The notes beneath the pieces were generated by a model that saw nothing but the letters and a program-made list of their open reading frames with translations, had not been told where the DNA came from and did not search any database. A DNA stretch of 64,000 bases from Pseudomonadota bacterium. Its GTDB lineage: Bacteria > Pseudomonadota > Alphaproteobacteria > JACQOE01. The stretch is from NCBI GenBank assembly GCA_016202695.1, contig JACQOE010000013.1:707-64706 (forward strand). Reading direction: 5' to 3'. Below are positions 1-12,474 of the stretch, piece by piece; position 1 is the stretch's first letter, and the number at the start of each line of letters is the position of its first letter. A program made the translations under genes and the position numbers.

Positions 1-214
1 GCGGCCCGTTGCCGAAGTAGCGCCCCAGGCGCAGCGCCGTGTCGGCGCTGATCGCGCGCCGGCCGTTGAGGATGTCGGTCACGCGCCCCGAGGGCACGCC
101 CAGGTCGAGCGCGAGCCGGTTGGCGCCGAGCCCCCGCGCCGCGAGCTCGCGCTTCAAGAGACGGCCGGGATGGGCCATCGGCCTGCCGCCGCCCCGGATG
201 CGCCGCACCGGCAT
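1..214 (-). CDS. higA: HigA-family antitoxin / XRE HTH protein (3' end runs off the window)
   Basis: Absent from the ORF track (no stop in window). My translation from ATG 214 (TGATG overlap with the amidase stop) or ATG 178: (MPVRRIRGGGRP)MAHPGRLLKRELAARGLGANRLALDLGVPSGRVTDILNGRRAISADTALRLGRYFGNGP. HPG + HTH + 'ISADTALRL' is the HigA pattern. Confidence 0.85.
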   Translation of the reverse strand, partial: MPVRRIRGGGRPMAHPGRLLKRELAARGLGANRLALDLGVPSGRVTDILNGRRAISADTALRLGRYFGNGP

Positions 215-8686: not shown

Positions 8687-11038
8687 GTGAACGATGAGAG
8701 CACCACCTCCCGTGCGGCAGGGCACGTGCGCCTAGGCCAGCCCGTCCGGCGGCTGGAGGACGAGCGGCTGCTCAGGGGGCGGGGCGGCTTCATCGACGAC
8801 CTCGACCTCGGTGGCCAGGCACACGCCCACTTCGTCCGCTCGGTGCACGCGCACGCCCGCATCGCAGGAATCGACACCGCGGCCGCGCGCCAATCCCCCG
8901 GGGTGCTCGCCGTCTACACCGGCGCCGACCTCGATTCGGAAGGCGTGGGCCGCATCCACTTCCCCTCGGCGGTGAAAAGCCGCGACGGCACGCCGATGCG
9001 CAACCCCGTGCGGCCGTGCCTGGTTTCCGACAAGGCCCGGCACGTCGGCGACACGGTCGCCATGGTGGTGGCCGGGAGCCGCGGCGAGGCGCGCGACGCG
9101 GCCGACCTGGTCGCGGTCGAGTACGAGGAGCTACCCGCCGTCACCGGCGCCGCCGAGGCGCTGCAACCGGGCGCGCCGCTGGTCTGGGACGAGGTTCCCG
9201 GCAACCTCGCCTTCGACTGGGAGGGTGGCGACCGGGCCGCGGCGGAGAAGGCGTTCGCCGCCGCCCGCCACGTCGCCCGTGCCGAACTGGTGGTGAGCCG
9301 GGTGGTGGTGGCGGCGATGGAGCCGCGCGGCGCGCTCGGATCGTACGATCCGCACAGCGGCCGCTACACCCTGATCACGCCCACCCAGGGCACCACGCCC
9401 GTGCAGCAGACCATCGCCAGGTACGGCCTCAAGGTGCCCTCGACCGACCTGCGAGTGGAAAGCCCCGACGTGGGCGGCGGCTTCGGGATGAAGAACTACG
9501 CCTATCCCGAGCAGGTGCTGGTGCTGTGGGCGTCGCGCAAGCTGGGCCGGCCGGTGAAGTGGTACCCGGAGCGGAGCGACGGCTTCATGACCGACGCCCA
9601 GGGCCGCGACCACCGGATGCAGGTGGAGCTCGCGCTCGACGCGGAGGGCCGCTTCCTTGCCATCCGCTGCCGGACCCTCTCCAACCTCGGCGCCTACGCC
9701 ACCCAGTCGGCGCCGTTCATTCCCACCCTCGGCGGCACCCGGGTGCTGACCGGGGTCTACACCATTCCCTGCTTCCACGCCGAATCCAGGGGCGTCTTCA
9801 CCAACACCGTGCCGATCGACGCCTATCGCGGCGCCGGCAAGCCCGAGTTCATGTACGCGCTGGAGCGGGTGGTGGACGTGGCCGCGCGCGAGCTGAAGGT
9901 GGACCCGGCCGAGCTCCGCCGGCGCAACATCGTGCTGCCCTCGGCCATGCCCTACCGCACGCCCACGGGGCTGGTGTTCGACTCGGGCGAGTTCGCCAGG
10001 AACATGGACGATGCCCTGGTACTCGCCGACCGCCCGGGCTTCGCCACCCGGCGCGAGGAGGCGAGGAAGCGGGGCAAGCTCCGCGGCCTCGGCTTCTCGG
10101 TCTACCAGGAGCCGGACGGATTCCGCGACAACCGCGCCGAGCTCGTCTTCGACCCCAGCGGGCGGCTCACGCTCACCGTCTCGCCGGTCTCCAACGGCCA
10201 GGGCTACGTCACCACCTTCGCCCAGGTGGTGTCGGACCAACTGGGGCTGCCCTTGGAGACGATCCGGGTCGTGCAGGCGGACTCCGATCATACCGGCGGG
10301 GCCAGCGGTGCCGGGGGCTCGCGCACCGCCACCGTCACCGGCACCGCCATCGCCCGCGCCGCGGCCGAGATCGTGGAGAAGGGCCGGCGCATCGCCGCCC
10401 ACCTGATGGAGGCGAGCGCCGAGGACGTGGAGTTCGCCGACGGCGCCTTCCGCATCGCCGGCACCGACCGCTCGGTGGGCCTGGTCGAGGTGGCGCAGGC
10501 CGCCTTCCTCGTCGCTAGGCTGCCGCCGGACATGGAGTTTGGGCTGGGCGCGACCTCGCACTACAACGCGCGGGCCTACAGCTACCCCTCGGGCTGCCAC
10601 GTGGCCGAGGTGGAGATCGACCCCGAGACCGGCCAGGTGACGCTGATCGCCTACAGCGTGGTCAACGACTTCGGCCGGGTCATCAACCCACTCCTCCTGG
10701 AGGGGCAGATCCAGGGCGGGGTGGTGCAGGGGATCGGCCAGGCGCTGATCGAGAACTGCGTCTACGACCCGGGCTCGGGCCAGCTCCTCACCGGCGCCTT
10801 CACCGACTACGGCATCCCCCGCGCCGACGACGTGCCCTTCATCGCCTGGACGCGGAACGAGGTGCCATGCAAGACCAACCCGCTCGGCATCAAGGGCTGC
10901 GGCGAATCGGGCTGCACCGCCTCGATTGCGGCGGTGATGAACGCGGTGGTGGACGCGCTCGCGGAAGTCGGCGTCACCCAGGTCGACATGCCGACCACGC
11001 CGGAGAAGATCTGGCGGCTGTGCCGGACGGGGAAGTGA
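8687..11038 (+). CDS. Xanthine dehydrogenase-family molybdopterin-binding large subunit (CoxL/CutL-like, not form I CODH)
   Basis: RLEDERLL.G.G.F.DD, MEPRG, VGGGFG.K, active-site loop AYRGAGK, GQG..T, GSR and KGCGESG. Confidence 0.93.
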   Translation: MNDESTTSRAAGHVRLGQPVRRLEDERLLRGRGGFIDDLDLGGQAHAHFVRSVHAHARIAGIDTAAARQSPGVLAVYTGADLDSEGVGRIHFPSAVKSRDGTPMRNPVRPCLVSDKARHVGDTVAMVVAGSRGEARDAADLVAVEYEELPAVTGAAEALQPGAPLVWDEVPGNLAFDWEGGDRAAAEKAFAAARHVARAELVVSRVVVAAMEPRGALGSYDPHSGRYTLITPTQGTTPVQQTIARYGLKVPSTDLRVESPDVGGGFGMKNYAYPEQVLVLWASRKLGRPVKWYPERSDGFMTDAQGRDHRMQVELALDAEGRFLAIRCRTLSNLGAYATQSAPFIPTLGGTRVLTGVYTIPCFHAESRGVFTNTVPIDAYRGAGKPEFMYALERVVDVAARELKVDPAELRRRNIVLPSAMPYRTPTGLVFDSGEFARNMDDALVLADRPGFATRREEARKRGKLRGLGFSVYQEPDGFRDNRAELVFDPSGRLTLTVSPVSNGQGYVTTFAQVVSDQLGLPLETIRVVQADSDHTGGASGAGGSRTATVTGTAIARAAAEIVEKGRRIAAHLMEASAEDVEFADGAFRIAGTDRSVGLVEVAQAAFLVARLPPDMEFGLGATSHYNARAYSYPSGCHVAEVEIDPETGQVTLIAYSVVNDFGRVINPLLLEGQIQGGVVQGIGQALIENCVYDPGSGQLLTGAFTDYGIPRADDVPFIAWTRNEVPCKTNPLGIKGCGESGCTASIAAVMNAVVDALAEVGVTQVDMPTTPEKIWRLCRTGK

Positions 11039-11041
11039 GGG
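10976..11041 (+). repeat. 66-bp direct repeat, copy 1 (last codons and stop of the Mo-enzyme gene)
   Basis: acccaggtcgacatgccgaccacgccggagaagatctggcggctgtgccggacggggaagtgaggg is identical to 11364-11429. Confidence 0.95.
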
Positions 11042-11073
11042 AAAGGGCGGGCGGATCGTAAGGAGACCGGACG

Positions 11074-11364
11074 ATGCCGATGAAGAACCCGCCGCACCCG
11101 GGGCTGTCCGTCCGTTACGACTGCTTGGAGCCCCTGGGGCTCAGCGTGACCGAGGCGGCGAGGAAGCTCGGCGTCAGCCGCAAGCAGCTCTCCGACATCG
11201 TCAACGGCCGTTCGGGCATCTCGCCGGAGATGGCGATCCGGCTCGACAAGGCGTTCGGCGGCGGTGCCGAGACGTGGTTCCGGCTCCAGGCGGCCTACGA
11301 CCTCGCCCGGGCGATGAAGCGCGCCGACCGAATCAAGGTGGGGCGGCTCAAGCCGGCGGCGTGA
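11074..11364 (+). CDS. higA: HigA-family antitoxin (orphan; no higB upstream)
   Basis: [10 protein letters not shown]...[51 protein letters not shown]; RBS aaggag upstream. Confidence 0.93.
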
Positions 11365-11429
11365 CCCAGGTCGACATGCCGACCACGCCGGAGAAGATCT
11401 GGCGGCTGTGCCGGACGGGGAAGTGAGGG
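11364..11429 (+). repeat. 66-bp direct repeat, copy 2
   Basis: Perfect copy of 10976-11041 at offset 388 bp; it begins on the last base of the higA stop codon. Confidence 0.95.
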
Positions 11430-11558
11430 GGAAGGGCACGCCTGGAACGCTTGGCGTGGGCACTCGCTAGGAAGTTCCCGCGGGCCGACTCCGGGGTTTA
11501 ACCCGGGGGCTTGGCCCGCGGACAGCCCCAGCGGACGGATTTCGGAGCCCCCTTTCGT

Positions 11559-11679
11559 CGTCATGGCCGGGCCGCGCCGAGGGCGCGAGTCCCGGCCATC
11601 CACGCCTTCTTTTCCGGTGCCGGTCGAGGTCCAGGCGTGGATACCCGGGACTCGGCCTGCGGCCGGCCCGGGTATGACG
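11559..11679. repeat. Bipartite REP-like element
   Basis: cgtcatggccggg...cccggccatccacg ... cgtggatacccggg...cccgggtatgacg: nested inverted repeats with cgtca/tgacg ends. Confidence 0.75.
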
Positions 11680-11862
11680 GGGAAGGAACGGCGCCTCCCT
11701 TGTCGCCAAGGTCCGGTCCAACGAGCAGGGCCGCACCACGCCAGGCCACAGGGTGCGTCCCTCAACCCTGTACTGGGCAGGTTTGGTCTCGATGCGGCTT
11801 CCCCGCCGCGCCTCTTCGGTTAAGATGGCCGGCGAACGTCCCATCGGGGAATGGAGGGAGCG

Positions 11863-12474
11863 ATGGCCGATCCGATCGTCTTTGCCGGCACCGTGGAATG
11901 GTCGGGCGAGAACCCCGGCATCTCGCTGAAAGAAAGGCCGGACGGCCCCTTCGTCACGATGGCCAGTTTCTTTCGCGTCGTGCTCTCGCCGCACGGGCGG
12001 GGCCATGCCCTGGTGCTGCTCCAGTCGCCGCAGGACGCCAACCCGCCGGCGGAGCGGGCGAACCTCTGCCTCCACGACAACGAGAGGCTGGCGCGCTTCC
12101 TGGTCGCCGATTTCGTCTCCCACTTCGGCGCCTTCAAGGGCCTGCCGGGCCTTCGCGGCCTGGTCTACCGGCGCCTCGACGGCGTGGAACCCTCGGGCGA
12201 TCCCGCCGGCACCTACAGCGAGACGGTGAAATCCGGCGACCTCACCGTGCGGCTCACCTGGAGCGGGCTCGGCAAGCCGTTCTGCTTCGCGCTCCCGCCC
12301 GACAAGTCGGCCACCGGCCGGCACCACATGCCGAGCCTGTTCGTCGGCTGCAAGGAGGCCTCGGTGACGGTGAACGGCCGCGCCCTTCCGGGCAAGCCGG
12401 CGCCGCGCGAGATCGCCGGGCACAGCATCACCACCGCCATGCTCGCCTTCTCGGAGACCTGGATCCGCGCCTAG
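11863..12474 (+). CDS. Hypothetical protein (203 aa, no recognised domain)
   Basis: RBS ggagggag before ATG 11863, normal codon usage, protein-like composition. Confidence 0.8.
   Translation: MADPIVFAGTVEWSGENPGISLKERPDGPFVTMASFFRVVLSPHGRGHALVLLQSPQDANPPAERANLCLHDNERLARFLVADFVSHFGAFKGLPGLRGLVYRRLDGVEPSGDPAGTYSETVKSGDLTVRLTWSGLGKPFCFALPPDKSATGRHHMPSLFVGCKEASVTVNGRALPGKPAPREIAGHSITTAMLAFSETWIRA

Follow-up and report, generated by a model that had tools for sequence, protein, structure and literature searches.

We consider it likely that the locus described here, in which a duplicated end of a molybdenum (Mo)-enzyme gene brackets an orphan higA antitoxin gene, is a real and recent insertion accompanied by a long duplication of the target that arose without a recombinase, and that its cargo, a toxin–antitoxin (TA) cassette, was reduced to the antitoxin. 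The locus lies within a stretch of 64,000 nucleotides (contig JACQOE010000013.1, Alphaproteobacteria), called the window below, of a host genome (G000) that was assembled as a draft of 3.36 Mb in 100 contigs (87% complete, 4.7% contamination) and is probably a metagenome-assembled genome (MAG). Toxins of the HigB family are ribosome-dependent mRNA interferases, while HigA is a DNA-binding repressor.

A perfect direct repeat of a gene end brackets an intact higA

The initial annotation, made from the window alone, had described a perfect 66-bp duplication of the 3′ end of the Mo-enzyme gene, with a ribosome-binding site (RBS) and an intact higA between the copies, and both parts of this description were recovered. 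Our repeat search and a re-check of the sequence both returned a 73-nt repeat with a single mismatch, C10975 versus G11363, which contains an exact core of 66 nt (10976-11041 and 11364-11429) with a start-to-start spacing of 388 nt (Table 1). The edges of the repeat are sharp, identity being only 27-33% in the 60 nt beyond either edge. Within the G000 assembly the repeat sequence occurs in two copies at the locus and nowhere else, and a genome-wide scan found it to be the sole sharp-edged, isolated local duplication of at least 30 nt. The perfect identity of the copies points to a recent event, and as the duplication is exact over 66 nt we accept the earlier statement to this effect. A simple tandem duplication was ruled out: its periodic region would span 2 x 388 nt, but the one here spans 461 nt. 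The scan also returned a second candidate (C67:8197-8327 and 10999-11129, 131 nt exact), which was discarded as an assembly-edge overlap because its second copy lies at the extremity of the contig.

The target gene encodes a molybdopterin-binding large subunit with matches to MoCoBD_1/2 and Ald_Xan_dh_C, and its top NCBIfam matches fall under the equivalog cut-offs. It was left unbroken by the insertion, and the C-terminus of its product is similar to that of the ortholog at L027, the syntenic locus that carries the nearest Mo-enzyme homolog. Further Mo-enzyme paralogs with 68-69% nucleotide identity were observed in G000 on C87, C3 and C92.

Between the repeat copies lies an insert of about 315 nt with higA as its only gene. 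The predicted HigA scored 103.4 bits against TIGR02607 (cut-off 47.7) and 46.8 bits against PF01381 (HTH_3; cut-off 23), has the full native length without any decay, and differs from the family majority at five positions, each of which is found in other members. Its gene is single-copy in G000. Compared to the nearest relatives the ratio of nonsynonymous to synonymous substitutions (dN/dS) was 0.05-0.17, and the synonymous distance (dS) to the nearest known relatives was 0.43-0.48. Homology of the window to canonical higBA loci is confined to the segment from about 11055-11061 through the higA stop. The first 13 nt of the leader (11042-11054, AAAGGGCGGGCGG) matched none of the family loci, and homology to the spacers between higB and higA begins at about 11055, the lowest blastn query start. 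A relic higB stop codon, TAA at 11059-11061, overlaps the RBS AAGGAG (11060-11065) as it does in relatives, and the RBS is followed by 8 nt and the higA ATG. A promoter and terminator scan detected neither a sigma70-like promoter nor a terminator between the Mo gene and higA. Given this good RBS, the lack of a detected sigma70-like promoter of its own and the lack of an upstream terminator, higA is probably transcribed by read-through from the Mo-enzyme gene.

Table 1 Coordinates of the features at the higA locus, in window positions.
Feature	Position	Strand	Basis
Target gene: molybdopterin-binding large subunit of a CoxL/xanthine-dehydrogenase-family oxidoreductase, 783 aa	8687..11038	+	Pfam PF01315, PF02738, PF20256
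Repeat copy 1: last 20 codons, TGA (11036-11038) and 3 nt of the Mo gene	10969..11041	+	Repeat search
Leader of the insert, 32 nt	11042..11073	+	Alignment to canonical loci
Intact orphan higA, 96 aa, HTH_3/TIGR02607	11074..11364	+	Profile matches and homolog length
Right junction, 7-of-8 microhomology: CGGCGTGA (native 3′ end of higA including the stop) versus CGGCGTCA (Mo gene)	11357..11364	+	Sequence comparison
Repeat copy 2: displaced non-coding duplicate of the Mo-gene 3′ end	11357..11429	+	Repeat search

The right junction lies at a native stop codon and an imperfect microhomology

The Mo-gene stop codon precedes the left junction by 3 nt. At the right junction, the 3′ end of higA matches the Mo-gene sequence at 10969-10976 (CGGCGTCA), which forms the host side of the microhomology, and host sequence resumes directly after it. 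The initial annotation had proposed that the mismatch at the repeat edge creates the TGA of higA. This is not the case, because the same stop is carried by the two closest relatives at the nucleotide level (about 88% identity), whose higA genes end in ...GCCGGCGGCGTGA (L109) and ...CCAGCGGCGTGA (L034); the copy in G037 ends in ...GTGGCGTGA. Thus, G11363 is part of the native stop of higA, and the closest relatives likewise terminate in GGCGTGA. As read from the sequence, the right junction has the signature of an illegitimate, microhomology-guided joining rather than that of a recombinase core site.

Toxin, operator and recombinase are missing

We confirmed the earlier observation that the locus has no integrase, transposase or toxin: a search with PF00589 found no tyrosine recombinase on the whole 65-kb contig, no match to HigB (PF05015) was detected at the locus or in the 32-nt gap, and the neighbouring genes are metabolic. 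A cognate HigB was not detected elsewhere in G000 either. Each of the two HigB genes of this genome is paired with a HigA of its own, and they share only 28-32% identity with the family's canonical HigB. These two contrast with six HigA-family genes in the same genome, the five others being 36-47% identical to the HigA studied here. One HigA-family gene is located 11 kb upstream, running off the left edge of the window (1-172, minus strand; C88:618-878), and its product scored 78 bits against TIGR02607 with 37.5% identity. The family promoter/operator (TTGTAAAC...GGTTACA) is absent from the entire G000 assembly. The adjacent HigB and autoregulated promoter/operator that make up a functional HigBA system were thus both lacking at the locus.

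The order of the surrounding genes is shared with L027, where the nearest Mo-enzyme homolog (70% identity) is encoded, and higA is found behind neither of the two Mo-enzyme genes there; this comparison of gene order supports the reading that higA is an insertion. The two large-subunit genes of L027 (5001-7367 and 8852-11206) are paralogs separated by 1.5 kb; the window carries a single such gene.

The insert belongs to a widespread HigBA family with recurrent bracketing repeats

A search for HigA homologs returned 8000 matches, and among the best 120 of them 110 were exactly 96 aa long and 86-94% identical to the HigA of the window. The closest homologs are all part of canonical modules, which consist of HigB (92 aa, PF05015), a 14-nt spacer and HigA (96 aa). 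We fetched 160 family loci from genomes and metagenomes (L028-L187), and overall counts refer to 164 loci. The hosts include Alpha- and Gammaproteobacteria, Chloroflexota, Gemmatimonadota, Acidobacteriota, Binatia, Latescibacterota and others, with amino-acid identities of 66-91%. The higBA module, with 78-91% amino-acid identity, spans at least 8 phyla, with many sponge-associated and marine MAGs among its hosts. The GC content at third codon positions (GC3) of the family higA genes follows the GC content of the flanking host DNA (r = 0.72); most copies therefore appear to be ameliorated rather than freshly transferred.

In canonical cassettes, the half-sites TTGTAA(A/C)C and GGTTACA form an inverted repeat within the promoter (the 70 nt before higB at L109, L014, L017, L112, L041, L110 and L029), and a -10-like TTACA(A/G)T lies only 6-10 nt ahead of the higB start codon. 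Such a short distance would imply that the mRNA of the toxin is leaderless or nearly so. About 30 of the 164 loci have no recognisable HigB and about 12 retain just its last 20-45 codons. In the latter group, which includes L030, L043, L118, L060, L087, L040 and L147, a stub of higB truncated at the 5′ end is followed by an intact higA, which suggests a recurrent disarming of the toxin with retention of the antitoxin and its RBS.

Bracketing direct repeats recur within this family. Exact repeats of at least 18 nt were found at 7 of the 126 loci with enough flanking sequence versus 0 of 1248 mismatched-flank controls, and gapped alignment returned significant bracketing repeats of 24-236 nt at 11 of 143 other family loci. 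Strong bracketing repeats (score 34-74) were present at 8 of 114 loci versus 0 of 333 within-locus control comparisons, for which inverted orientation, upstream-only pairs and downstream-only pairs were used; these controls gave one score of 21 (inverted), four of 19-26 (upstream-only) and none (downstream-only). The sequence of the repeat is distinct at all 11 related loci. The bracketed cassettes span only about 0.7-1.1 kb and have no recombinase, and their ends are ragged: the conserved module begins at the promoter, with 30-90 nt of non-conserved sequence between it and the left repeat, while the right repeat begins 0-90 nt past the higA stop, and no element-encoded end could be recognised. 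HigB was intact in 7 of the 11 bracketed cassettes and broken, truncated or missing in the other 4.

One of these loci, L168, has a topology like that of the window, its repeat consisting of the last 18 codons and the stop of a convergent neighbour and ending 1 nt past that stop (3 nt in the window). Several of the family repeats have diverged to 75-90% identity, two of them in chromosome-level assemblies; because of this divergence, these duplications are real and old and not products of an assembler. At L079, in a MAG of the Azospirillum type, the flanking open reading frames (ORFs; 813-1712 and 2303-2848) read a 53-nt duplication in the same frame, and the higBA insertion may have split a gene there instead of landing behind a stop codon.

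Proposed mechanism

Based on the junction anatomy and on the ragged, variable ends of the family cassettes, we favour a mechanism in which template switching, or a different kind of microhomology-guided joining, took place at an intermediate of replication or repair. A segment of the widespread higB-higA cassette would have been joined 3 nt behind the stop of the Mo gene by illegitimate recombination guided by microhomology. In such an event, a strand that had copied higA up to its stop would re-anneal on the host template 66 nt upstream of the point from which it had departed, and approximately 66-73 nt of the target would be copied twice, with the host gene staying whole and a displaced duplicate of its 3′ end following the insert. 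The state with higA alone could have arisen by either of two routes. The whole cassette may have been inserted and its promoter and higB removed later by an internal deletion, in which case 11042-11054 would be a remnant of the non-conserved left edge of the cassette, or a fragment bearing higA may have been inserted alone. The capture of a fragment by non-homologous end joining at a staggered break was also considered and is unsupported, with no Ku found in G000, and an mRNA-derived (retro-)insertion was ruled out for the full cassettes, which include their own promoter/operator.

As a non-addictive gene between perfect 66-nt repeats, higA would be expected to pop out by homologous recombination, which would restore the exact empty site (Mo gene-A-GGAAGGGCACGCC). 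Its likeliest role would be that of a free antitoxin neutralising incoming copies of the cassette (‘anti-addiction’), as G000 has neither a cognate HigB nor the family operator; otherwise, it would be a neutral relic.

Alternative explanations

As one of two possibilities, the initial annotation had interpreted the locus as the remnant of an integrative element that kept only its antitoxin, the repeats being attL and attR at the 3′ end of the Mo gene and everything in between except higA having been deleted. Toxin loss is common among the bracketed cassettes of the family, and the part of this proposal in which only the antitoxin was kept is therefore plausible. Integrative elements also typically show direct repeats that restore the 3′ end of the target gene, and TA modules are frequent cargo of genomic islands. 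An origin from a site-specific element is, however, highly improbable, as the contig has no tyrosine recombinase and the right edge is the native higA stop at an 8-nt imperfect microhomology, so that the element would have had to end exactly with the stop of higA. In addition, the 11 related loci have repeats that differ from locus to locus and enclose only short, recombinase-free cassettes with ragged ends.

The second possibility raised by the initial annotation, an active, minimal non-autonomous cassette of 388 bp (higA plus one repeat) that is excised as a circle and goes back into the chromosome by homologous recombination (‘pop-out/pop-in’), appears unlikely to us as an account of the locus. 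Pop-out by itself is plausible, as perfect repeats of 66 nt are above the usual minimum for RecA, and the structure corresponds to A+B in circularly permuted form. For restriction-modification units, the Kobayashi group has hypothesised a life cycle of this pop-out/pop-in kind, with amplification and release from repeats of this sort (Furuta et al.; PMC2853133). However, the unit is single-copy in G000, its circle would be without an origin and would need an identical 66-nt target, and the model accounts for neither the original insertion nor a spread to further sites. The family repeats are locus-specific.

An old resident higA behind the Mo gene, with a recent backward template switch that placed a copy of about 62-66 nt from the Mo-gene end behind the higA stop, would also account for the repeat, and we regard this scenario as having a low probability as well. 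It fits the host-like GC3 of higA (94.8%, equal to that of host genes), the dS given above with no recent donor known, the presence of GTGA at both ends of the copied segment and the weak similarity between the bases past the two copies (GAGGG-AAAGGGC versus GAGGGGGAAGGGC). It would require two precise switches in addition to an earlier insertion of higA alone, though, and the recurrent bracketing duplications at unrelated family loci would be left unexplained.

A very small probability was assigned to an artefact of the assembly or of the population, i.e. collapsed or mixed variants such as an empty-site strain together with another molecule, or a different copy number. The draft state of G000 and its contamination leave room for such a mixture. 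By contrast, the sequence shared across each new junction with any other sequence is at most 8 nt, far under assembler k-mer sizes, so by the logic of de Bruijn assemblers the k-mers of both junctions must derive from reads. The 131-nt contig-end overlap on C67 hints that the largest assembler k was above 66. Moreover, the junction makes biological sense, with a native stop, a microhomology and a preserved RBS, and the diverged repeats at comparable family loci are beyond what an assembler can create.

Several observations weigh against a recent, recombinase-independent insertion, which we nevertheless prefer. Because the GC3 of higA is host-like, a recently arrived gene would have had to come from a source whose GC content was similar, and family members that qualify do occur but are few (GC3 of at least 0.90 in 5 of 164). 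Taken together with the perfect repeats, this leaves either such a source or a long-resident higA at which a local rearrangement took place recently. The 87%-complete G000 contains no donor copy, and the absence of Ku from this assembly removes one candidate joining pathway. An empty site was not shown among the genomes compared, in which no relative is closer than class level and the nearest Mo-enzyme homolog is just 70% identical; look-ups for proteins identical to the Mo enzyme or to HigA came back without a match. An empty site was likewise not seen for two related loci: at L079 (G041), the alignment with relatives starts only at the left edge of copy 2 and synteny is lacking on the left flank, and for L037 (G042) no empty site was found among relatives that are just 66-74% identical. 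The clean, near-perfect cases within the family all come from short-read metagenome assemblies, and with a de Bruijn k of 66 or less an integrated copy cannot be distinguished from a circle accompanied by an empty site, from a strain mixture or from a change in copy number.

Relation to known systems

Restriction-modification (RM) units without mobility genes are the published case of insertion with long target duplication; they lie between locus-unique direct repeats that exceed 30 bp and vary in length (Furuta, Abe & Kobayashi 2010, NAR; PMC2853133). Some of these duplications overlap the 3′ end of a neighbouring gene, DNA breakage by the restriction enzyme was suggested as the mechanism, and a cycle of insertion, amplification and release was hypothesised (PMC2853133). 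An earlier account of long target duplication by RM units is cited there (Nobusato et al. 2000, Gene 259:99). The criteria of Furuta et al. were a repeat of more than 30 bp, an insert of less than 20 kb without a mobility gene, a locus-unique repeat, a relative with an empty site and a cargo of R and M genes. At the present locus, the repeat is 66 nt long when exact and 73 nt with the mismatch, the insert of about 315 nt has no mobility gene and the repeat is locus-unique, and the cargo is a HigA antitoxin instead of an R and M pair. As to the empty site, the distant syntenic L027 without higA lends weak support only, while the published cases rest on pairwise genome comparison. The likeness thus lies in a small addiction-type unit without transposase or integrase that is located between locus-unique copies of its target, and the repeat lengths at the window (66-73 nt) and in the family (24-236 nt) fit the published description. 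In contrast to the RM units, the cargo is a type II TA cassette, represented here by the antitoxin only, and does not encode any DNA cleavage.

Compared to canonical HigB-HigA systems (PF05015 with TIGR02607/HTH_3), the orphan HigA has the same length of 96 aa, an identity of up to 94% to paired HigA proteins, and the same RBS and spacer. Unlike these systems, the window has no toxin gene and no TTGTAAAC...GGTTACA operator, and just 32 nt separate higA from the upstream gene.

Anti-addiction modules (Saavedra De Bast et al. 2008), as presented in the review by Van Melderen & Saavedra De Bast (2009; PMC2654758), resemble the locus in that a toxin-less chromosomal antitoxin close to that of a spreading TA family could in theory neutralise incoming copies. 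The published examples differ in being complete chromosomal TA systems or decayed loci that are not located between fresh target duplications. In the same review, Nobusato et al. are cited only where RM systems are likened to TA systems in addiction, apparent mobility and decay.

Integrative elements and integron cassettes resemble the locus in having direct repeats by which the target gene retains its 3′ end, and higBA cassettes do occur in chromosomal integrons. The repeats described here are, however, host coding sequence that is distinct for each locus, and host coding sequence follows directly past the higA stop, on a contig without an integrase. An attC-like site was not found, the only inverted repeats downstream being a unique palindrome and a dispersed element more than 110 nt away (both described below), although a dedicated attC model was not run.

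The literature searched contained no paper that links TA modules with long target duplication, and we think it probable that a TA cargo, and one consisting of the antitoxin only, is new for an insertion scar that has so far been described only for RM genes. The finding bears on the open question of how TA modules move between chromosomes without mobility genes. Since the same scar surrounds the HigBA family, and here an antitoxin alone, it is seen with cargo other than the RM units for which restriction cutting was the proposed cause, which argues for a mechanism that is supplied by the host and independent of the cargo. It also provides a set of junctions for testing, with microhomologies, ragged ends and positions right after stop codons. 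With the higA of the window, a naturally occurring candidate is available for an antitoxin with an anti-addiction role against a TA cassette that is among the most widely shared.

A more speculative reading, which we regard as possible but rather doubtful, is that the cross-phylum HigBA family as a whole constitutes a selfish cassette free of recombinases, whose spread is host-mediated and proceeds by insertion with long target duplication, often directly behind stop codons, and that the window represents its toxin-less next stage. If so, the excess of RM and TA genes among such insertions would reflect survivorship, as other inserts would soon be lost by pop-out unless their loss was lethal. 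The higA of the window would then act as an anti-addiction ‘vaccine’, able to pop out, and perhaps back in, as a unit of 388 bp.

Neighbouring genes and further observations

From 11 kb upstream to 4.5 kb downstream of higA the neighbours are metabolic genes, except for one ORF of 207 aa without a family match. They encode an amidase, an enolase of the mandelate racemase/muconate lactonizing enzyme (MR/MLE) type, a cyclase, an acyl-CoA dehydrogenase, a CoA-transferase, a flavin reductase, an enoyl-CoA hydratase and the Mo enzyme, followed beyond higA by the 207-aa ORF, a major facilitator superfamily (MFS) transporter, a deacetylase-like protein and a pyridoxal phosphate (PLP) enzyme. The 207-aa ORF (11851-12474, plus strand) has a host-like GC3 of 92.8% and no Pfam or NCBIfam match at E values up to 0.1. 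It is kept in the same-class genome G003 with 78% nucleotide identity and is absent at the syntenic L027.

Two inverted repeats were seen downstream of the second repeat copy. The first, which is unique in G000, forms a hairpin of 44 nt (11478-11521, of the type CCGCGGGCCGACTCCGGGGTTT / AAACCCGGGGGCTTGGCCCGCGG) and starts 50 nt past that copy. The second, at 11550-11690, resembles a repetitive extragenic palindrome (REP), with arms at 11586-11607 and 11633-11654 that are 91% complementary. The Rfam search gave noise matches only, to microRNA models, and these fell on the REP-like palindrome. About seven more copies of this palindrome, with 74-92% identity, are located on C81, C100, C84, C9, C38, C83 and C15.

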